From positions 12,705 to 76,704 of the forward strand of contig JBNGDF010000011.1 of the NCBI GenBank assembly GCA_049975265.1: DNA of 64,000 nt, read 5' to 3'. The first letter of the stretch is position 1. Each line of letters starts with the position of its first letter. This stretch comes from Fidelibacterota bacterium. Lineage in GTDB: Bacteria > Fidelibacterota > UBA2242. The translations under genes were made by a program, and so were the position numbers. The notes under the pieces were generated by a model. It saw only the letters and a program-made list of their open reading frames with translations. It did not search any database and was not told the origin of the DNA. Of this stretch, positions 3,462-43,524 are shown in pieces.

Positions 3462-4382
3462 ATGGAGAAAATTCTGAACAGAAGCAACATTTTAACGGAA
3501 AAGATCAACCCGAAGAGTGCCCGGATCGACACCATGTCCACCGAGGAGATTATTCGACTGATCAATGAAGAGGATGGAACCGTTCATAAAGCCGTCGCGA
3601 AGGCAATCCCGGACATCGTCCGGGCGACTGATATAGTCGTAAATGCCTTCAAACATGGTGGTCGGCTGCGCTATATCGGCGCCGGCACCAGCGGACGGTT
3701 GGGAGTTCTGGATGCCAGTGAAATCCCGCCCACCTTTTCAGTTTCCACCGACCTGGTTCAGGGGATGATTGCCGGTGGCTGGCGGGCGCTACGGGAGGCG
3801 ATTGAAGGTGCCGAAGACTTCGAAGAGAGCGGTGCGGAGAATTGCAAAGCCATCAGATTGACCTCCAAAGATGTTCTCATGGGGATCGCCACCGGCGGGA
3901 CAACTCCCTACGTTCACGGCGGCTTGAAATATGCCAAGTCCATTGGGTGTAAGACGATCTTTTTTACCTGTACGCCGCATGAGGAGCTGGGCATTGATGA
4001 GGTCGTCGATGTCTTTATTGATGTGCTGGTGGGACCGGAACTAATCACCGGCTCGACCCGTATGAAAGCCGGCACCGCCACCAAAATGGTTCTGAATATG
4101 ATCACCACTACTGCCATGATCAAAATGGGCAAAGTCTATGGCAATTACATGATTGATCATCAGGCGATCAATTCCAAGCTGGTGGACCGCGGCACACGCA
4201 TCATCGCCACGCTGACAGGACTGTCTTATGAGGATGCCTATCAGGCTTTGCTGGCTGCCGATAAACATGTCAAAGAGGCGGTGGTGATGGTCAAGCGGAA
4301 TGTCTCACTGGAAAAAGCGCGCCGGCTCATTGCCGAACATGACGGTTTCGTCCGTTTTGCTTTTGAAGAATCCGACCAATAG
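3462..4382 (+). CDS. murQ: N-acetylmuramic acid 6-phosphate etherase
   Basis: SIS-domain protein with the characteristic GAGTSGRLGVLDASEIPPTF and TGSTRMKAGTATKMVLN motifs. Confidence 0.9.
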   Translation: MEKILNRSNILTEKINPKSARIDTMSTEEIIRLINEEDGTVHKAVAKAIPDIVRATDIVVNAFKHGGRLRYIGAGTSGRLGVLDASEIPPTFSVSTDLVQGMIAGGWRALREAIEGAEDFEESGAENCKAIRLTSKDVLMGIATGGTTPYVHGGLKYAKSIGCKTIFFTCTPHEELGIDEVVDVFIDVLVGPELITGSTRMKAGTATKMVLNMITTTAMIKMGKVYGNYMIDHQAINSKLVDRGTRIIATLTGLSYEDAYQALLAADKHVKEAVVMVKRNVSLEKARRLIAEHDGFVRFAFEESDQ

Positions 4383-4414: not shown

Positions 4415-5572
4415 ATGACCTCAATTTGGAATCTGCATCAAAAAACCGATCTGAACGTTCTGGGACTGATGTCCGGCACGTCCATGGACGGTCTGGATAT
4501 CTGCCTTGCAAAAATTGCAAAAGATGGCAACACCATGACGGTAAACGAGTACCGCTTTTCTGAATACGCCTATCCCGGTGATGTTAAAGCGTGGCTGAGT
4601 CGCCTGCCGGAAGCGAATGCCGAGACGCTCTGCCGGGCAAATTTCACGATTTCGGAAACCTACCTGCCGTTGATTCACCGGTTTTTAAAAGACAATGAGA
4701 TTTCCGGTAAGGAGATTGATCTGATCGGCAGTCACGGGCAGACAATCTGGCATGTTCATCGTCATTCTACCCTGCAGCTCGGCGAAGCCGCGGTTCTGGC
4801 GGAGGCGTTTACAGTTCCGGTGGTTTCGGATTTTCGGGTTCGGGACATCGCTGCCGGTGGTTCGGGTGCGCCGCTGGTACCCTTTGTGGACTTTTTACTT
4901 TTCCAAAAACTTCAAAAAAACCTCATGGTGCTGAATATCGGCGGGATCGCCAATTTCACCCTGATTCCCGTCCGGGCTGAAAGTGCTGCGGATATCTATG
5001 CACTGGACACCGGTCCGGGGAATTCGTTGATTGATCTGGCGGTGAGAATGTACACCGACGGGCGGGAGACGTTTGACCGGGATGGAAAAATCGCCCGCAC
5101 GGGGCGCATTCGCCGGGATATCCTGGCTCACCTGATGGAGCACCCCTACATTCGCGCGGAGATGCCGAAATCCACCGGACGTGAGGTCTTCGGGCAAAAA
5201 ATGCTGACGGAAATTGTGCAAAGATTTATGCTGGAAAGGTCGGATTTTCCTGACCTTATTATGACCCTGACACGTTTTACTGCCGACTCAATTTATTCAA
5301 ATTATCAACAGTTCTTTGCAAATAAATATCCGATCGACGAAATTATTGTCAGTGGCGGGGGTGTTGAAAATCCGGTGTTAACGGAGCATTTGAAAGCAGA
5401 TTTTGCTGGAGTATCGATGAAACTTTCGGATGATTATGGTGTCGGGAGTGCTGCCAAGGAGGCGTTGACCTTTGCCCTGTTGGCGGCAGCGGCGATCTGG
5501 GGCATTCCGGGAAATGTCCCGAATGTTACAGGAGCGGCGCATGCTGTAGTGTTAGGTAAAATTAGTTTGTAA
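4415..5572 (+). CDS. anmK: Anhydro-N-acetylmuramic acid kinase
   Basis: N-terminal GLMSGTSMDGLD motif and 385 aa length are typical of AnmK. It lies directly downstream of murQ. Confidence 0.9.
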   Translation: MTSIWNLHQKTDLNVLGLMSGTSMDGLDICLAKIAKDGNTMTVNEYRFSEYAYPGDVKAWLSRLPEANAETLCRANFTISETYLPLIHRFLKDNEISGKEIDLIGSHGQTIWHVHRHSTLQLGEAAVLAEAFTVPVVSDFRVRDIAAGGSGAPLVPFVDFLLFQKLQKNLMVLNIGGIANFTLIPVRAESAADIYALDTGPGNSLIDLAVRMYTDGRETFDRDGKIARTGRIRRDILAHLMEHPYIRAEMPKSTGREVFGQKMLTEIVQRFMLERSDFPDLIMTLTRFTADSIYSNYQQFFANKYPIDEIIVSGGGVENPVLTEHLKADFAGVSMKLSDDYGVGSAAKEALTFALLAAAAIWGIPGNVPNVTGAAHAVVLGKISL

Positions 5573-5585
5573 AAGGAGATTGATA

Positions 5586-6947
5586 ATGAATCCGTACATT
5601 TTTCGTGAATATGATATCCGGGGAGTCGTTGCCGAAGATTTTCCGGAAGAGGTTGTGGTGCAATTGGGGAAAGCCTTCGGGACCTATGTCCGGGAGAAGG
5701 GCGGTAAGACCATTGCGTTGAGCGGTGATGTACGGCTTTCCACGCCGGCTCTGAAAAAGGCGTTTGCTGAGGGTTTGATGGCAACCGGAGTGGATGTTAT
5801 CGATGTAGGTATTGTCCCGACGCCGGTGAATTACTACAGCATGGTGATTCTCGATGTAGATGGGGCGGTGCAGATTACCGGTAGTCACAATCCGTCAGAC
5901 ATGAATGGATTTAAGTTGTCCTATGAGGGCAAAGCGGTGTACGGCTCCGATATTCAGTATCTGAAATCACTGATCGACGCTGGTAAATTTGCCGCCGGAG
6001 CAGGTCGTTTTTCGGAAAAGGAAATTCTGGAAGATTACAAGCAAATGGTCATCTCGAAAATTACCCTGGAACGCCCGGTAAAGCTGGTAATGGATTGTGG
6101 CAATGCCGCCGCCTGTCTGGCTGCGCCGGAGATTTATAAAGCCGTGGGTTGCGAAGTGACGGAACTGTTGTGCGAGGTGGACGGCACATTCCCCAATCAT
6201 CATCCCGATCCGACAGTGAAAAAGAATCTGAAGGATTTAATTACGCAGGTGAAAAAGGGTGGCTACGATTTTGGGATTGCTTTTGACGGCGATGCCGACC
6301 GGGTCGGAATCGTAGATGATCAGGGCGAAATCATCTGGGCGGATTATATTATCATTCTGATGCTGGATGAGATTTTTGCGAAATATCCCGGTACCGGCGT
6401 GGTGTTTGACGTCAAATGCTCCCAGGCGCTGGAGGAGGCGATCGTGGAAAAAGGGGGACGTCCGATTATGTGGAAGACCGGGCATTCGCTGATCAAGCAG
6501 AAAATGAAAGAGGAAAATGTGCCCTTTTCCGGGGAAATGAGCGGACATATCTTTTTCAAGGACGACTATTACGGTTTTGACGACGCCATCTATGTGGGTC
6601 TGCGGTTTGCCCGGATGGTATCGCAGCTGAAAGAGCCGTTATCCCGGCGGATGGCGAAACTGCCCCGTTACTATTCCACACCGGAGATGCGTCTGGAATG
6701 CGAAAGCGATAAAGTGAAGTTTGAGATTGCGCAGAAGGCAGCCGAGTATTTTAAAGCCAACTATGACTGTATTGATGTGGACGGCGTCCGGATTAAATTC
6801 GGTGACGGCTGGGGTCTGGTGCGGAAATCCAATACGCAGCCGGTGATCGTGACCCGTTTTGAAGCCAAAACCGAGCAGCGGCTGGCAGAGATCAAAGATT
6901 TGGTGTTGACGAAGCTACAGGAGTTTGGGAAACTGCAAATAAATTAG
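5586..6947 (+). CDS. Phosphomannomutase/phosphoglucomutase family phosphohexomutase
   Basis: Active-site loop TGSHNPSDMNGFK, metal loop FDGDADR and sugar loop GEMSGH. The ATG at 5586 is preferred over the TTG at 5580 because AAGGAG lies 7 nt upstream. Confidence 0.85.
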   Translation: MNPYIFREYDIRGVVAEDFPEEVVVQLGKAFGTYVREKGGKTIALSGDVRLSTPALKKAFAEGLMATGVDVIDVGIVPTPVNYYSMVILDVDGAVQITGSHNPSDMNGFKLSYEGKAVYGSDIQYLKSLIDAGKFAAGAGRFSEKEILEDYKQMVISKITLERPVKLVMDCGNAAACLAAPEIYKAVGCEVTELLCEVDGTFPNHHPDPTVKKNLKDLITQVKKGGYDFGIAFDGDADRVGIVDDQGEIIWADYIIILMLDEIFAKYPGTGVVFDVKCSQALEEAIVEKGGRPIMWKTGHSLIKQKMKEENVPFSGEMSGHIFFKDDYYGFDDAIYVGLRFARMVSQLKEPLSRRMAKLPRYYSTPEMRLECESDKVKFEIAQKAAEYFKANYDCIDVDGVRIKFGDGWGLVRKSNTQPVIVTRFEAKTEQRLAEIKDLVLTKLQEFGKLQIN

Positions 6948-36565: not shown

Positions 36566-36779
36566 ACGGCATTTATATCAGCATACGGCTATTTTGTACC
36601 GCGAATTGCGGCGGCGGGATTTGTTTTTCCCCTGTGAAAATTGTAAGTTTTAAGTCGAAATGTGGCTGTTTCTCAAATCAAGTTATGCGGAATTAAGCGA
36701 GATTTCAGATTTTGGTAATGAATTTTTGGCACTCTGAAGCAGAAAAGCGAAGTAAATAGTTATATACATGGAGAATATC

Positions 36780-39700
36780 ATGGCTCAAAAAATGAAAAGT
36801 ATGGACGGGAACACTGCGGCGACTCATGTCGCTTATGCGTTTAGTGAAGTTGCTGCAATTTACCCGATTACCCCTTCATCGGGGATGGGTGAGATGGCTG
36901 ATGCCTGGGCGGCTAAAGGTCTGAAGAATATTTTTGGTCAGACGGTGGATGTAGTGGAGTTGCAATCCGAAGGCGGTGCCTCGGGAGCTGTCCACGGCGC
37001 CCTCTCGGCGGGGGCGATGACCACCACCTTTACCGCATCGCAGGGATTGATGCTGATGCTGCCGAATATGCATAAGATTGCGGGTGAGATGCTGCCGACC
37101 GTATTTCATGTTTCGGCGCGCTCCCTGGCGTGTCAATCGCTCTCGATTTTCGGCGACCATTCCGATGTGATGTCGGCGCGCAATACCGGCTGGGCATTGA
37201 TGGCGCTGAGTTCGATTCAGGAAATCATGGACCTGGGCGTGGTTTCCCACCTCGCTACTCTGAAGTCCAAGATTCCCTTTCTGAATTTTTTCGACGGATT
37301 TCGGAATTCCCACGAAATCCAGAAAATCTATGAGATTGACTATGCCACAATGCGTGAGATGCTGGATATGCAGTACGTCGAAGACTTTCGCTCTCGCGCA
37401 ATGAATCCGGAAAAACCGCTGCTAAAGGTCGGACAGGAGGGTCCGGATACCTATTTTCAGGGACGCGAGACGGTGAACCGGTACTATCTGGAGGCTCCGG
37501 CGATCGTGCAGGAATATATGGATGCGCTGGCAAAGAAGATCGGTCGTCAGTACCATCTGTTCGATTATTTCGGCGCTCCCGATGCAGAGAAGATTATCGT
37601 CATTATGGGCAGTGGCGCCGACACGGTGGAAGAGACCGTTGATTATTTGAACAAGAAAGGTGAGAAGGTAGGGCTGATTAAAGCCCGGCTGTATCGTCCT
37701 TTCTCCGTTGAGCATTTTATCAAAGCGATTCCCGCCAGTGTAAAGAAAATTGCCGTTCTGGACCGTACCAAAGAGCCCGGCTCTATCGGTGAGCCGCTCT
37801 ACCTGGATGTGGTTGTAGCCTTAGCCGGAAAAGACCTGAAAATCGTTGGCGGACGCTACGGATTGTCCTCGAAGGAGTTTACCCCTTCCATGGTGAAGGC
37901 GGTGTACGATCATCTCGATGGGGCAGCCACTAACGGTTTTACCGTCGGTATTAACGATGACGTCACGCACACTTCCCTGGAAGTCAGGGAAAAGATCAAC
38001 ACCATTCCAGAAGGAACGATTTCCTGCAAATTCTGGGGACTTGGTTCTGACGGTACGGTGGGTGCCAATAAGAACTCCATCAAGATCATCGGTGACAACA
38101 CCGACATGTACGCTCAGGGCTATTTTCAGTATGATTCCAAAAAGTCCGGCGGGATTACCCGCAGCCACTTACGCTTTGGAAAACACCCAATCAAATCCGA
38201 GTATCTGGTAACCGACAACGTCGATTTCATCGCCTGTCACAATCAGGCGTTTATCCACCGCTACGATATTCTCGAGGGTATCAAGGAAAACAGTGTTTTT
38301 CTGCTGAATTCGGTCTGGAGCAAAGAAGAGGTATTTGAAAATCTGCCGCAGGCAATGCAGCAGACGATCATCGATAAGAAAATTCGCTTTTACAATATCA
38401 ATGCCCTGGAGATTGCCAATAATGTCGGCTTGGGAAACCGTATCAATACGGTCATGATGGCGGCATTTTTTATCATCTCGGGCGTCCTGGAAAAGGATTT
38501 TGCCATAAAACTGATTAAGGATGCCATTGAAAAAACCTACGGCGCCAAAGGTCGTGAAATCGTCGAGATGAACTGGAAAGCGGTTGATGCTGCGGAAGAG
38601 GCTCTCGTTGAGGTGCAGGTCCCGGATACACTTCCGAAAAAACATGCACCGGTGAAGCCACTGGTTCCTGAGGATGCCGATGATTTTGTGAAAAATGTCA
38701 TTGAGAAAACCATGCGTGAAAAGGGTGACGAAATTCCGGTTTCAGCGATGCCCCTGGACGGATTTGTCCCCACCGGAACGGCGAAACTGGAGAAGCGCGG
38801 TGTGGCACCTTTTGTACCGCACTGGATTAAGGAGAACTGCATTCAGTGTAACCAGTGCTCCTTTGTCTGTCCCCACGCCGCAATTCGGGCGAAGCTGATC
38901 GATCCCAACAGCCTGAAAGATGCACCGGAAGGTTTTGAAACGCTGGATGCCATCGGCAAAGACGCTGGGATGAAGTATAAAATTCAGGTCTATGTGGAAG
39001 ATTGCCAGGGTTGCATGAATTGCGTCAATGAGTGCCCGAAAGGAGCCCTCGTTGCCAAACCGATTCAGGAAGAGCGCGATGCCGGCGAATCCGATTTTGC
39101 GCTCTATTTTGATGCCCTGCCGTCGGATGTACTCAGTAAAGCCGTAAGACTTGAATCGCTGAAAGGCAGCCAGTTCAAGCAGCCACTGCTGGAGTTCTCG
39201 GGCGCCTGTGCCGGTTGTGGCGAAACGCCCTATGTCAAGCTGATTACACAGCTCTACGGCGACCGGATGATCATCGCCAATGCAACCGGTTGTTCCTCCA
39301 TCTGGGGTGGAACTTTTCCGACCATTCCTTATGCCAAAAATAAAGACGGTCACGGTCCAACCTGGGCAAACTCACTCTTTGAGGATAATGCCGAATACGG
39401 TTTCGGCATGCGACTGGCAGTGGATTCCAATCGCAGACAGCTGCGCACGGCGATGGAAAAAGCCCGGGAAATGGACCTGGATGCCGGTTTCAACGAGCTG
39501 ATCAAAGAGGCTTTTGAACTCTGGAATACCAAAGAGGACGAGATCAAAGCAGTATCCAAAAAGATTCAGGCGGCGCTGCCGGACCTGGTCAAAAAAGCCA
39601 CTGGCGAAGGGCAGACGGTTCTGAAAAAGATCATGGAACTCCAGAGCTATATTGTGCCGAAGAGTGTCTGGGCTTTCGGTGGCGATGGCTGGGCATACGA

Positions 39701-40301
39701 CATCGGTTACGGTGGTTTGGATCATGTCATGGCATCCAACCGGAACGTCAATATTTTAGTCCTGGACACGGAGGTCTATTCCAACACCGGTGGGCAGGCG
39801 TCCAAAGCAACGCCGCTGGGCTCGGTGGCTCGGTTTGCCGAAGCCGGGAAAACCACCAAGAAAAAAGACCTGGGCATGATGCTGATGAGTTATGGGTATG
39901 TATACGTCGCTTCCGTTGCTATGGGTGCCAACAAGAATCAGTTAATCAAAGCAATCAAAGAGGCGGAAGATTACGATGGACCGGCAATTATTATTGCCTA
40001 TGCGCCCTGCATCAACCATGGCTGCGATATGCAGATGACCCAGCAGGAAGAGAAGAAAGCGGTCGATACCGGGTACTGGTTGCTCTATCGCTACAATCCG
40101 ACATTGAAAGCGGAAGGCAAGAATCCCTTGATGCTGGACTCGAAGAAACCGTCACTGCCGGTTGAAGAGTTTCTGAAAAGCGAGAAGCGTTACACATCGC
40201 TGAAGCTCAGTTTTCCGGAGAATGCTGAAAAGTACTGGAAAGAACAGCAGATAATCGTTGATGAACGCTACGAACAGTATCGTAAGATGGCAGAGCAGTA
40301 A
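36780..40301 (+). CDS. nifJ: Pyruvate:ferredoxin (flavodoxin) oxidoreductase, single-polypeptide type
   Basis: About 1170 aa. N-terminal MDGNTAATHVAYAFSEVAAIYPITPSS, two 4Fe-4S motifs (CIQCNQCSFVCP, CQGCMNCVNECP) and a TPP motif GGDGWAYDIGYGGLDH. The ATG at 36780 has GGAG 6 nt upstream; the ATG at 36768 is an alternative. Confidence 0.93.
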   Translation: MAQKMKSMDGNTAATHVAYAFSEVAAIYPITPSSGMGEMADAWAAKGLKNIFGQTVDVVELQSEGGASGAVHGALSAGAMTTTFTASQGLMLMLPNMHKIAGEMLPTVFHVSARSLACQSLSIFGDHSDVMSARNTGWALMALSSIQEIMDLGVVSHLATLKSKIPFLNFFDGFRNSHEIQKIYEIDYATMREMLDMQYVEDFRSRAMNPEKPLLKVGQEGPDTYFQGRETVNRYYLEAPAIVQEYMDALAKKIGRQYHLFDYFGAPDAEKIIVIMGSGADTVEETVDYLNKKGEKVGLIKARLYRPFSVEHFIKAIPASVKKIAVLDRTKEPGSIGEPLYLDVVVALAGKDLKIVGGRYGLSSKEFTPSMVKAVYDHLDGAATNGFTVGINDDVTHTSLEVREKINTIPEGTISCKFWGLGSDGTVGANKNSIKIIGDNTDMYAQGYFQYDSKKSGGITRSHLRFGKHPIKSEYLVTDNVDFIACHNQAFIHRYDILEGIKENSVFLLNSVWSKEEVFENLPQAMQQTIIDKKIRFYNINALEIANNVGLGNRINTVMMAAFFIISGVLEKDFAIKLIKDAIEKTYGAKGREIVEMNWKAVDAAEEALVEVQVPDTLPKKHAPVKPLVPEDADDFVKNVIEKTMREKGDEIPVSAMPLDGFVPTGTAKLEKRGVAPFVPHWIKENCIQCNQCSFVCPHAAIRAKLIDPNSLKDAPEGFETLDAIGKDAGMKYKIQVYVEDCQGCMNCVNECPKGALVAKPIQEERDAGESDFALYFDALPSDVLSKAVRLESLKGSQFKQPLLEFSGACAGCGETPYVKLITQLYGDRMIIANATGCSSIWGGTFPTIPYAKNKDGHGPTWANSLFEDNAEYGFGMRLAVDSNRRQLRTAMEKAREMDLDAGFNELIKEAFELWNTKEDEIKAVSKKIQAALPDLVKKATGEGQTVLKKIMELQSYIVPKSVWAFGGDGWAYDIGYGGLDHVMASNRNVNILVLDTEVYSNTGGQASKATPLGSVARFAEAGKTTKKKDLGMMLMSYGYVYVASVAMGANKNQLIKAIKEAEDYDGPAIIIAYAPCINHGCDMQMTQQEEKKAVDTGYWLLYRYNPTLKAEGKNPLMLDSKKPSLPVEEFLKSEKRYTSLKLSFPENAEKYWKEQQIIVDERYEQYRKMAEQ

Positions 40302-40348: not shown

Positions 40349-40380
40349 GGGGCGTGAGATATTGCGCCCCCTCTTTTTTT
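40349..40380 (+). terminator. Rho-independent terminator of PFOR gene
   Basis: GGGGCG…CGCCCC stem (40349-40354 pairs with 40365-40370) followed by CTCTTTTTTT. Confidence 0.75.
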
Positions 40381-40393
40381 GGAGGATCAAGAT

Positions 40394-40460
40394 AACCTTC
40401 CGAAGGTTTTTCATCAGCTTAACTCCCGGCAAAATTATTTAGAAAAACCTTCGGAAGGTT
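40394..40460. repeat. Perfect 19-nt inverted repeat; each arm is a small hairpin plus T-run
   Basis: AACCTTCCGAAGGTTTTTC lies at 40394-40412 on the + strand, and the identical sequence lies on the - strand at 40442-40460. Each arm contains the palindrome AACCTTC-N-GAAGGTT. Confidence 0.8.
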
Positions 40461-40467
40461 AAGGAAA

Positions 40468-41104
40468 TCACCCACCGATTTTGCCGTAGAGTTTTTCGTA
40501 GCGCTGAGGATAGAGTTTTTTCATACAATCCCGGCAGATACCGTGACTGAATTCGGCATTGCTATGCTTGCTCAGGTAGGTTTCCAGGTTGTTCCAATAA
40601 CCTTCATCATCGCGGATTTTCTTACATGAGGGGCAGATGGGTAGCAGTTTTTTCAGCTGTTTTATCCGGGTCAGGGCTTCGGTCAATTCCACGATCAGGC
40701 GTTCACGCTCTTCTTCAATCCGCCTTCTGGCGAGGATTTCGATCTGCAGTTTGTGGTTGGATTTGACGATTTCACCGCGGCGTTCGCGGATCCGGTCTTC
40801 GATATGATTGCGCTCTTTTTGCAGAGCGGCGGCGACGTTCTCTTTTTTCTGCAATTCCTCCTGTAAGCGGGTATGGACATTTTCCAGCTCGCCGATCGTC
40901 TGCAATAGGCGTAATTCCCGGGCTTCGATCTTGATGATCATCATGCCGAAAGACTCTGCCAGGTCCGCAATTGAAGGGGGGGTATTTGTCCGTTTTCGTC
41001 AATTCAAATACCTGAGCATCGTGCTGAAAGTGATTCGCACCGGCATCTTTAACGGTTCGAATCAGTATATCAAGTATTTCCTGATAGCTGCTGTCATTAT
41101 CCAT
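40468..41104 (-). pseudogene. Coiled-coil protein with C-terminal CxxCKKIRDD…FSHxxCxDC module, interrupted by a frameshift in a C7 run (pseudogene, phase-variable gene or assembly error)
   Basis: ORFs 40772-41104 and 40468-40944 are colinear with the N- and C-terminal parts of the upstream paralogue. Removing one C from the C7 run (G7 on + at 40976-40982) joins them into one 211-codon frame. Confidence 0.8.
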
Positions 41105-41111
41105 ATTCGTC

Positions 41112-41882
41112 TCATATCTCCGACGGTAAATCCGTCAATTTGCCCTTTTCGAGCATCCGCTCATACTCTTCCGGATAGTGTTTTTTCAGGCAATCGGGAC
41201 AGAGGCTGTGACTGAATTCGATATCGGCATTCTTGCTGATGTAGATTTCCAGTTCGTTCCAATAGCCCTGATCATCGCGGATTTTTTTGCATGAGGCACA
41301 AATGGGAATCAAGCCCTTCAGGGTTTTGATATTGTTCAACGCCTCCTGGAGATCATCAACCAGTTTTTTGCGCTCTTCATCAATGGCTTTGCGTTCGAGA
41401 ATCTCGGTTTTTAACATTTCATTGGTTTTCATCAATTCGGAGGTGCGGTTTTGAATGAGCGCTTCCAGATTGTTCCGGTAGTTCATCAGCTCCTGCTCGA
41501 TTTTTGTGCGGGCTTCGTACTCCGCCTCCAGCTGACCGTTTAGTTTTTTCAACTTCTCAATTGTCTGTTCGAGACGCAGTTCCCGGGCTTCGACTTTGAC
41601 GATCATCATGCCGAAGGACTCCGCCAGCTCGCTGATCTTCGCCGGGTAGACGCCGGTTTTTGCCAGCTCGAAAATTTCGTCCGGATCGCTATACCGCTGC
41701 CGGGATATATCGCGGGCGATATCGGAAAGGTAATCCAGCAGTTCATCAATCTTCTGGTTATAACTTTCCGCTCCTTTTTGTCTGGCGTGTTCGAGAGAGT
41801 CTTGCTGCTCCTGGGTGATTTTTTGGCGCAGGGACTCCAGCCGCTTCAACAGTTTGGAATCGGGCATCAACTCCTTGCTCAT
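41112..41882 (-). CDS. Coiled-coil signalling-helix protein with C-terminal Cys/His module (IPICASCKKIRDDQGYWNELEIYISKNADIEFSHSLCPDC), function unknown
   Basis: 256 aa with long heptad regions including RTSELMKTNEMLKTEILERK. Four Cys plus His lie in the last ~50 aa. GGAGGG RBS. 19 nt after the PHP gene. Confidence 0.8.
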   Translation of the reverse strand: MSKELMPDSKLLKRLESLRQKITQEQQDSLEHARQKGAESYNQKIDELLDYLSDIARDISRQRYSDPDEIFELAKTGVYPAKISELAESFGMMIVKVEARELRLEQTIEKLKKLNGQLEAEYEARTKIEQELMNYRNNLEALIQNRTSELMKTNEMLKTEILERKAIDEERKKLVDDLQEALNNIKTLKGLIPICASCKKIRDDQGYWNELEIYISKNADIEFSHSLCPDCLKKHYPEEYERMLEKGKLTDLPSEI

Positions 41883-41901
41883 TAAATATTCCCTCCGATC
41901 T

Positions 41902-43524
41902 TTATTTTTGCCATATAGGATTTGTTAAAGCGAAATGACCGTTTAAGGTTGTTAATTCTGCCCGAAGGTAAGCTTTTTCCGGCATATTTTCCACGGTTAA
42001 ATCAAACCTGGACTGCAGCTCCCCGGCGTGATACGTTTCCTGGCGAAAAACTGTTTCCCTGACGGCTTTGACGTTACCGATAAAAACGGTCAACTGATCC
42101 AGGGTGCCGAAATAGGGTGTTGAACGGGCATTGATTGTAACGATATTGTCTGCGGCTGATTCAAGAGAGAGGAAAGGACCGTCCGAGATTATGACGTTTT
42201 CTCCCTTTAGAGCATCGATGATGCCCTGTACGCCGTTATCGAGGTCGGCTTTGATCCCGGTCAGGTTCTGTCCGAAAATCTGGTGCTGGTGTTCATGCAT
42301 CAGGAGCAGCGGGATTAAAACCTGCCGAAAGCGGTTGAAATTGCCGTGAGAATCGTTACCGGCGTAGATCAGTTGCCGTCGACCTTTCAGGAGCTGACTG
42401 ATCCAGAAAGCTTTGCCGGTTTCGAAATCTCCGGCAGGTTTACCGTTCAGAATCTGAAAGCCTGCCAGACGGGGGTGATAATCCCGGCGGTTCCAGATAC
42501 CCCGATGGATCAGGAGGTGATGCCAGAAAGGCGGCTTTTCAAAAGGGTGCGCGGCAAACGCCAGCGACTGGTCGGGAATCGTATCCAGGACGGTCGCATA
42601 GTGTGATTCCGTTACTTGTCCCAGCGATTTTTCCATGCCGTCGCCACTGCCGCAGTGAAAATGGGGGTCGTTGAGAACGTTCATATGCACTGTGCGCCCA
42701 AAACCATTATCAACCGACACCTCTTCACCGGGTATGAGGATAAAATCCCGGTTGCTGCGGTTTAGATCATGGATATCATTCAGGAGCCGTTGCCATTTAC
42801 GCAAATCGGGGTCCTGGACGGTCCAGGAATCTGGAGAATCGTCGAGATCGTACGAATGATCCGTAACGGCGCAGAAAGAGAGCCCCATGGTTCGACCCAG
42901 CGGGCGGTAACAGTCCGGCGGAACGCCGAATTCGACCTGATCCTCGGTATAGGATGAATGGACATGCAAATCGCCCCAGAGCCAGCCGTCCTCTTTGGGG
43001 AGTGGATCCCGGTCCATAAAGATTTCAAAGGATTTTTGGGAAAGCGTTGGGTAGTTGTCATTGCGTACGATAAACGCTTTCCCACCACCTACCAGATAGG
43101 CAAAACAGTCGAGATGAACCCATTGATTCTGAAAATTCGCGGCATCAATGGTGATGATTTTGGTAAACCACTTGGTATGGACCCCTGTACCGACAGGTAC
43201 GGTAACATCGCCGGCAATCGGTTTATGTTCGTGATCCATCAGCCGGATGACGATCTTTTCCAGGGTAACGGGAAACCAGTGAGCGTCCTTGATCAGCAGC
43301 AGAACCGGAATGTGACCCGTCTCGCTGCGCCGGGGCAGGTCAAAGATGATTTCGGGCTGTTTTTTATAGAGGAGTCCTTTGAAAAAAGGCAGACGATAGT
43401 GCATTTCTGCATAGAGAATAAAGGGCGCTACCAGCAAAGCGGCGGAGATGATGAAATCCGCGTAAAAAGTGAAATCCACAGTTAACATAGACCAAAGATA
43501 AAATAAAAAAGCAGATATCGCCAA
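41902..43524 (-). CDS. Membrane-anchored PHP / CehA-McbA-type metal-dependent phosphoesterase
   Basis: Hydrophobic N-terminus with about 2 TM segments. PHP-like motifs GDLHVHSSYT, CAVTDHSYD, AAHPF and GNDSHGNF. TTG start at 43524 in the ORF track; the ATG at 43488 is an alternative. Confidence 0.7.
   Translation of the reverse strand: MAISAFLFYLWSMLTVDFTFYADFIISAALLVAPFILYAEMHYRLPFFKGLLYKKQPEIIFDLPRRSETGHIPVLLLIKDAHWFPVTLEKIVIRLMDHEHKPIAGDVTVPVGTGVHTKWFTKIITIDAANFQNQWVHLDCFAYLVGGGKAFIVRNDNYPTLSQKSFEIFMDRDPLPKEDGWLWGDLHVHSSYTEDQVEFGVPPDCYRPLGRTMGLSFCAVTDHSYDLDDSPDSWTVQDPDLRKWQRLLNDIHDLNRSNRDFILIPGEEVSVDNGFGRTVHMNVLNDPHFHCGSGDGMEKSLGQVTESHYATVLDTIPDQSLAFAAHPFEKPPFWHHLLIHRGIWNRRDYHPRLAGFQILNGKPAGDFETGKAFWISQLLKGRRQLIYAGNDSHGNFNRFRQVLIPLLLMHEHQHQIFGQNLTGIKADLDNGVQGIIDALKGENVIISDGPFLSLESAADNIVTINARSTPYFGTLDQLTVFIGNVKAVRETVFRQETYHAGELQSRFDLTVENMPEKAYLRAELTTLNGHFALTNPIWQK

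Follow-up and report, generated by a model that had tools for sequence, protein, structure and literature searches.

The locus considered here lies in a 64,000-nucleotide (nt) stretch of contig JBNGDF010000011.1 (positions 12,705 to 76,704; assembly GCA_049975265.1) from a Fidelibacterota bacterium, referred to hereafter as the window, and comprises three genes on the minus strand. The genome is that of a member of Neomarinimicrobiota (Marinimicrobia). Gene 1 (43524..41902, the maximal open reading frame, ORF, in the ORF listing) encodes a membrane-anchored metallohydrolase of the PHP superfamily, gene 2 (41882..41112) a 256-amino-acid (aa) cytoplasmic coiled-coil protein ending in a four-cysteine (Cys4) domain, and gene 3 (41104..40468) a paralog of gene 2, which bears a +1 frameshift and is 211 aa long after repair. 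The ORF listing and direct translation both agree with the initial annotation in placing the three genes co-directionally, with gaps of 19 nt (AGATCGGAGGGAATATTTA) between genes 1 and 2, and 7 nt between genes 2 and 3. Given this tight spacing, and a GGAGG-like ribosome-binding site in the first gap, co-transcription of genes 1-3 in this genome is likely. The terminal Cys4 domain of genes 2 and 3, hereafter the tail, is the new part of the locus; the signaling-helix (S-helix) sensor architecture that precedes it, and the PHP enzyme, are of known kinds. Judged by its sequence context, the tail is best interpreted as an undescribed output domain, as it occupies an output position: it is C-terminal, stands behind an S-helix, is fused only to input modules, and is exchanged with HisKA-HATPase kinase output.

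Genes 2 and 3 were initially annotated as paralogs of three-part layout, and this description holds: 98 of 200 residues (49%) are identical between them, and both sequence alignment and AlphaFold2 (AF2) modeling reveal an N-terminal module, a long helix and the tail. Orthologs of gene 2 occur in metagenome-assembled genomes of Neomarinimicrobiota at 95-40% identity, and an alignment of 25 gene 2/3 orthologs underlies the following description. The N-terminal helical module of gene 2 (41574..41750, minus strand; LLDYL..IARDISR.RY.DP.EIFEL.KT..YP..I.ELAESFGMMIVKVEARELRLEQ) is closed by an invariant LAE.(F/L)GMM..K.E.R block. This region had been likened to the second helix of a HAMP domain, a comparison which finds no backing in either of two approaches. 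In isolation the module has no hit in Pfam, including to the HAMP model at E<=10, although this model does recognize the HAMP domains of two tail proteins, P0077 and P0051, as a positive control; NCBIfam and PADLOC likewise contain no qualifying family for it; and when the gene 2/3 alignment is compared with P0077 using hhalign, only the S-helix and tail align, after the HAMP domain of P0077. As AF2 predicts a topology of helix, short helix, loop and helix for the module, it may nonetheless be a distant relative of HAMP.

The AF2 model predicts helices at residues 9-63 and 67-75 of gene 2, followed by an uninterrupted helix of ~109 residues (aa 81-189; 41316..41642, minus strand), with a predicted local distance difference test (pLDDT) score above 90 for residues 100-180. 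A single heptad frame with leucine-rich core positions holds across this helix, and leucines 104, 111, 118, 132, and 139, all invariant among the 25 orthologs, keep a seven-residue spacing. Within it, residues ~129-170 (41373-41498, minus strand) resemble an S-helix, which is defined by an ERT signature in its central heptad (Anantharaman, Balaji and Aravind, 2006; PMC1592074). The S-helix motif recognized in the initial annotation is supported by a local match of this segment to the linker of TorS (E=2.8e-5) and by the ortholog consensus of the distal helix, IRERTxELxKxNxxLKxEILER; in the window, the ERT position is occupied by NRT in the gene 2 copy and by ERR in that of gene 3. Genes 2 and 3 thus have in common with S-helix sensors (the linkers of TorS, FixL and NahK; PMC1592074) a parallel-type coiled coil of ~5 heptads that joins an upstream module to a C-terminal effector, here the N-terminal module and the tail, as well as the R-T..EL...N..L..EI.ER pattern. 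Unlike them, genes 2 and 3 deviate from the ERT signature in the window, add ~45 leucine-zipper residues ahead of the S-helix, and end in an effector that is a Cys4 domain of ~55 aa, rather than a kinase, cyclase, GGDEF or PAS domain. Neither zinc nor cysteine comes up in the paper that defines the S-helix (PMC1592074). Genes 2 and 3 are read as encoding soluble signaling proteins that very probably form dimers. The same N-terminal module also precedes HisKA and HATPase domains, in protein P0084 and in a gene at locus L077 (8903..10312), and this fusion to either partner argues that the tail and kinase output are interchangeable.

Gene 3 was taken to be a whole gene in the initial annotation, and its frameshift was overlooked. 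At 637 nt the length of the gene is not divisible by three, and the ORF list represents it by ORFs of 110 and 158 aa in different frames. Comparison with orthologs places one extra base in CCCCCCCTT (40974..40982, minus strand), a run of seven C followed by TT; deletion of one base of the C7 run AAATACCCCCCCTTCA (40976-40982) restores a 211-aa protein with 84% identity to the intact 211-aa protein P0040. Orthologs of gene 3 are intact at 211-212 aa, and that of locus L001 reads AAA TAT CCT CCA TCA at the same spot, with no homopolymer run and the frame preserved. Programmed frameshifting and phase variation find no support, since the C-run is not conserved in orthologs; the frameshift reflects either an error in sequencing the homopolymer or a recent loss of the gene's function.

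The Cys/His motif quoted in the initial annotation is present at the end of both small genes, as a tail at 41145..41336 in gene 2 (Cys core 41190-41300) and at 40495..40680 in gene 3 (Cys core 40525-40635), both on the minus strand. Ten residues (L6, P11, C13, C16, D22, G24, W26, F41, C46, and C49) are invariant across 37 non-redundant tails, and the four cysteines, which form two CxxC knuckles with the spacing CxxC-x29-CxxC, are also invariant in 104 further representatives. Some members have Q or Y in place of the histidine of the 'FSH' motif; as the four cysteines are invariant and this histidine is not, the likely metal site is Cys4, and the two CxxC pairs probably hold one zinc ion. Modeled in isolation by AF2, the tail adopts a beta-alpha-alpha-beta-alpha-alpha layout (pLDDT 82), in which both CxxC pairs fall at strand-to-helix junctions. 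The domain is slightly acidic, with a median net charge of -2 and a median isoelectric point (pI) of 5.7, and has conserved basic spots at K17, K18, R20, and in a KK pair after the last cysteine.

The initial annotation knew of no experimentally assigned function for this tail, and none emerged from Pfam, NCBIfam, PADLOC, the PDB or the open-access literature. No model of Pfam (2025 copy), NCBIfam release 20 or PADLOC matches it at threshold; the best Pfam zinc-finger and zinc-ribbon similarities (E = 0.005-0.1) fall below gathering scores, and what matches there are amount to coiled-coil or generic Cys-motif noise. A tail profile searched against PDB chains gave a non-significant best match (E=0.05 over 20 residues), and a Foldseek search of the PDB with the AF2 tail model returned a best E-value of 0.96 and no nucleic-acid-binding zinc domain. 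Open-access literature searched for the literal CKKIRDD motif, and for themes of zinc output and S-helices, yielded no description of it. The zinc-binding cyclic-dinucleotide receptor ComFB was considered as a candidate, but no tail has a hit to the Pfam ComFB model. Cys4 zinc modules are otherwise familiar on helical and coiled-coil regulators, including the C4 zinc finger of DksA/TraR, zinc ribbons, and zinc-binding anti-sigma factors with their HxxxCxxC motif. Set against these, the tail is alike in having two CxxC pairs in a small domain beside a long coiled coil, and a partner-binding role is plausible for it also. It is unlike zinc ribbons and C4 fingers in its CxxC-x29-CxxC spacing and its predicted topology, and in lacking a matching model or PDB neighbor; and unlike the anti-sigma motif in that its histidine is not invariant and the arrangement is HxxCxxC instead of HxxxCxxC.

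The tail belongs to a very large family. A hidden Markov model (HMM) of the tail, searched against 1.84 billion representatives of public protein clusters (50% identity), matched 23,967 representatives at E<=1e-3 and 19,645 at E<=1e-10. E-values against proteins of unrelated architecture reach 1e-30 and better, far beyond chance, and tail identity across phyla is 55-70%. The carriers, judged by source names, are largely anaerobes or sediment dwellers, and include Neomarinimicrobiota, Cloacimonadota, Nitrospirota, Verrucomicrobiota and Desulfobacterota-type lineages, among others. The tail is essentially always C-terminal, with a median of 15 aa between the last cysteine and the C-terminus. Pfam domains that accompany it in 104 representatives are input modules only: PAS in 52, receiver (REC) in 12 and HAMP in six, with GAF, Cache, MASE6, 7TMR-DISM, Y_Y_Y and SBP as rarer partners, and GGDEF, EAL, HATPase and helix-turn-helix (HTH) domains in none of the 104. 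The profile search and Pfam co-occurrence thereby agree with the initial description of the tail as an appendage that recurs at the C-terminus of PAS and REC proteins. Some members consist solely of a periplasmic sensor, transmembrane (TM) helices and the tail, and several have 2-7 TM helices directly before the tail. Genes encoding REC-tail proteins sit directly behind genes for hybrid histidine kinases. The family resembles modular-output response regulators and one-component sensors in comprising REC-, PAS-, HAMP- and TM-sensor-tail proteins, whose REC members follow kinase genes, and differs from them in that the output is uncatalogued and that the window proteins have no recognized input domain.

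Four metagenomic proteins from outside the window (P0241, P0242, P0244, and P0250) each hold two full units of membrane sensor plus tail in one ORF, as in the 1405 aa of P0244 with two beta-propeller-TM-tail units; such ORFs reflect either tandem fusion or the joining of neighboring genes during gene calling. Among plasmids, the collection yielded a single tail, at L101 (831-4141) on Dongshaea marina plasmid NZ_CP028898.1, where a GAF-domain gene is apparently split by IS21, and the downstream part that encodes the tail (4001-4141) is unannotated.

Gene 1 was initially described as a membrane PHP phosphoesterase of 540 aa. The assignment is sound at the level of the superfamily, given the match to NCBIfam NF038032 (CehA/McbA), the invariant metal motifs and the one hydrophobic helix. 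The length applies to the maximal ORF, which opens with a TTG at 43524, but the likely start is an ATG at 43488, which gives a protein of 528 aa: the database copy has this length, and the N-termini of homologs fit the same start. In 540-aa numbering, a hydrophobic helix at residues 18-42 (43399..43473) is followed by a conserved N-terminal domain at residues ~43-179 (42988..43398), with the motifs YAE.HY, PEI.xD.P.R, KDA, and NDN, and by the PHP-type catalytic domain (41911..42987), with its HxH, DH, E, H, H, and DxH metal motifs, all on the minus strand. The NF038032 match (E=2.3e-16) spans residues 180-538 and model positions 1-313 of 315, at a score of 60.1 bits, short of the curated 80-bit cut-off. 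Pfam yields neither a PHP hit at E<=1 nor any match for the N-terminal domain of ~135 aa; the E. coli protein YcdX is a weak match in the PDB, and there are 1376 homologs. In an alignment of 22 sequences with identity down to 37%, the invariant metal-motif residues (528-aa numbering) are H175, H177, D183, E186, H211, D214, E256, H268, H314, D379, and H381, and all of the PHP motifs first quoted for this protein fall in invariant columns. Residues E46, D50, P52, R54, K67, D68, N143, and N145 of the N-terminal domain are likewise invariant. Compared with CehA/McbA and YcdX-type PHP enzymes, gene 1 is alike in its full-length domain alignment and complete set of metal-ligand motifs, and unlike in its sub-cut-off score, its own membrane helix and its unmatched N-terminal domain. 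Residues 18-42 are the only stretch with a 19-residue Kyte-Doolittle mean above 1.6, and as basic residues (R, K, KK, RR) lie on the C-terminal side of this helix, the positive-inside rule would place the catalytic domain in the cytoplasm. The catalytic residues thus appear intact, in a predicted hydrolase tethered to the membrane by a single N-terminal helix.

In KSB1, Calditrichia, Ignavibacteria and Bacteroidota, the homologous PHP gene stands last in a conserved operon of the order glycosyltransferase family 2 (GT2), LPG_synthase_TM (PF03706), GT2, Polysacc_deac_1 (polysaccharide deacetylase), GT2, and PHP, often with a Peptidase_M50 gene next. Examples are L090 (599-7602) and L091 (994-7638), and further such loci are L040, L042, L045, L049, L051, L055, L062, L069, L070, L074, L075, L081, L085, and L089. 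These GT2/deacetylase neighborhoods suggest that, in the FCB group (Fibrobacterota-Chlorobiota-Bacteroidota and allies), the PHP family of gene 1 serves a pathway of envelope glycolipids or polysaccharides. At L090, from a non-Marinimicrobia genome, a small TIR-domain gene (5522-5935) lies directly upstream of the PHP gene.

On its low-coordinate side the locus faces a convergent pyruvate:ferredoxin oxidoreductase (PFOR) gene (36768..40301, plus strand), and on its high-coordinate side the divergent genes efp-accB-accC-gcvH-gcvP. The order of efp, divergent PHP gene, tail gene or genes and convergent PFOR is kept in close and moderately distant relatives, with a changing occupancy of the slot between PHP and PFOR. 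This slot holds the two coiled-coil-tail paralogs in the window and at L001; a PAS-tail gene plus two coiled-coil-tail genes at L002; one coiled-coil-tail gene plus a HAD hydrolase at L005; one coiled-coil-tail plus one seven-transmembrane (7TM)-PAS-tail gene at L007 and L009; a 7TM-PAS-tail gene alone at L021 and L025; and a histidine kinase followed by both paralogs at L077 and L033. It is empty at L026 and L030, where PHP abuts PFOR. The kinases at L077 (8903-10312; N-terminal module-PAS-HisKA-HATPase) and L033 (11746-12927; a PAS histidine kinase) stand between the PHP gene and the gene 2 ortholog, in clusters with no receiver gene. The initial statement that the operon encodes no output domain is accordingly correct for the three window products, in which Pfam and NCBIfam find no kinase, REC, GGDEF, EAL, or HTH domain, but does not extend to relatives that have a histidine kinase in the same slot.

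The initial annotation further proposed a functional coupling between the phosphoesterase and the tail proteins, in which the latter would sense or control the membrane PHP enzyme, or respond to its product, as a dedicated enzyme-regulator unit. The close packing on one strand, with the ribosome-binding site in the first gap, is in keeping with such a unit, as is the fact that in relatives the first tail gene overlaps the PHP gene or lies 7-15 nt from it. To assess the adjacency more widely, the tail HMM was scanned over the 79 best PHP loci from species-representative genomes, counting loci with at least 2 kb downstream. A tail gene lies within 3 kb downstream of PHP in 8 of 23 species of efp-syntenic Neomarinimicrobiota, in four architectures (coiled-coil-tail, PAS-tail, 7TM-PAS-tail and duplicated coiled-coil-tail), and no tail gene occurs elsewhere in the PHP flanks, all of which would favor a unit. 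Against it, the association is limited: no PHP locus of other phyla (KSB1, Calditrichia, Ignavibacteria, Bacteroidota; 0/40) has a tail gene within 10 kb, and none is found near the PHP gene of basal Neomarinimicrobiota. In a neighbor-joining tree of PHP proteins the tail-positive loci fall in one crown clade, interspersed with at least five negative lineages (L014/15, L018, L020, L023, and L027) which have kept PHP, and so represent losses; L026 and L030 branch as sister to one tail-positive subclade. Moreover, the N-terminal module occurs in a kinase (P0084) with no PHP gene nearby, and the tail family, at ~24,000 clusters, is far larger than that of PHP and extends into other phyla. We consider an enzyme-regulator unit unlikely, and a module coupled to the phosphoesterase has the weakest support of all that the initial annotation proposed. 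The adjacency is conserved in one Neomarinimicrobiota crown clade together with the whole neighborhood, and is absent from basal relatives and from the other phyla that retain the PHP gene; from its distribution it appears to be a lineage-specific arrangement rather than a general pairing of enzyme and regulator. It behaves like an inherited, dispensable 'signaling island' behind the PHP gene, with 0-3 tail proteins and sometimes a histidine kinase, and on these comparisons the PHP enzyme cannot be the general partner of the tail.

Two further explanations concern the role of the tail itself. The first makes it an input, a redox or metal sensor based on zinc thiolates, as in zinc-binding anti-sigma factors or Hsp33. 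A sensor would suit the four invariant cysteines of the tail with their paired CxxC arrangement, the largely anaerobic or sediment-dwelling carriers, and the lack of any other recognizable sensor domain in the window proteins, yet many members (periplasmic propeller-TM-tail, PBP-PAS-tail and REC-tail proteins) would then be inputs without an output. As the tail is always C-terminal to the signaling helix, in the position of kinase or cyclase output, and as HisKA-HATPase can take its place after the same N-terminal module, this is very unlikely. The other explanation, which is nearly as improbable, sees the tail as a dimeric nucleic-acid-binding zinc module, and its carriers as one-component regulators of transcription or RNA. 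Coiled-coil dimers that present a pair of small zinc modules are common among DNA-binding proteins, and the conserved basic residues K17, K18, R20 and the KK pair, as well as the sub-threshold similarities to zinc fingers and zinc ribbons, would be compatible with one. The tail is acidic on average, however, its Foldseek comparison recovered no nucleic-acid-binding zinc domain, and the TM helices directly before the tail anchor several members in the membrane. As the slight acidity argues mildly against generic nucleic-acid binding, a protein is the more likely partner.

If the tail is an output domain, genes 2 and 3 may be regarded as a minimal stand-alone form of tail signaling proteins, for which the following mechanism can be envisaged. 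The upstream module (in genes 2 and 3 the N-terminal one, possibly via a partner protein) would receive a signal, which would pass as a rotation or register change along the parallel coiled coil of ~16 nm, and change how the two zinc tails at the dimer end lie relative to each other. This altered placement would switch binding to a conserved cellular partner. Several observations weigh against this reading, or temper it. The tail may already have a name in other resources, such as InterPro or subscription journals. Its confidence within the full-length AF2 model is low (pLDDT 43-66), and the extreme conservation of so small a metal-binding fold may be largely structural, and need not imply a universal partner. 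The neighborhoods of three REC-tail proteins contained no recurrent non-kinase neighbor and no conserved partner gene. Further, in the ~1.2 Mb of DNA that flanks the PHP genes, every tail gene lies immediately downstream of PHP, on the same strand and closely spaced or overlapping; common descent explains this placement, yet it would also be expected of a real functional link. Finally, dimerization, zinc binding and the existence of a partner are inferences from sequence and models. With these points taken into account, we hold the whole picture, namely the nature of the genes, the tail as output, the dimer and zinc mechanism, and the loose linkage to PHP, to be somewhat more probable than its negation.

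Some remaining features of the locus stand apart from this argument. Directly after the stop of gene 3 (40441-40460, minus strand) is an inverted repeat, AACCTTC-CGA-AGGTT, followed by TTTTT, and the CCTTCGGAAGG motif recurs ~50 nt beyond. The repeat is possibly a weak terminator, unflagged by the consensus scan; the strong terminator, at 40349-40370, is that of the convergent oxidoreductase gene. Across the 64 kb of the window, no match to Rfam attains the gathering score of its family. A role in anti-phage defense was also considered, as all three products have weak matches to the TrlF PHP-ATPase model. These fall in different parts of the model, and the candidate was rejected because the match of gene 1 reflects PHP-motif similarity only (E=0.05), and those of genes 2 and 3 coiled-coil similarity. 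In PADLOC, gene 1 has no match, and genes 2 and 3 have only coiled-coil-level matches to LmuB, JetC and PbeC (E>=1.8e-4).

More broadly, many bacterial sensors and response regulators are annotated by their input alone, as 'PAS domain S-box protein' or 'response regulator', and seemingly lack an output. A large share of such proteins carry one extremely conserved four-cysteine C-terminal domain of ~55 residues, in the position that a kinase or cyclase would occupy. We tentatively propose, at slightly less than even confidence, that this tail constitutes an undescribed class of signal output for tens of thousands of PAS, REC, HAMP, GAF, Cache and 7TM sensors across phyla, which would act on a conserved target without phosphotransfer, cyclic-nucleotide turnover or classical helix-turn-helix DNA binding. 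If the tail is indeed an output, it defines a signaling route common to many bacterial phyla. Genes 2 and 3, which consist of a module, a coiled coil and a tail, are among its simplest carriers, and are thus good candidates for structural and interaction work that may provide a handle on the target.

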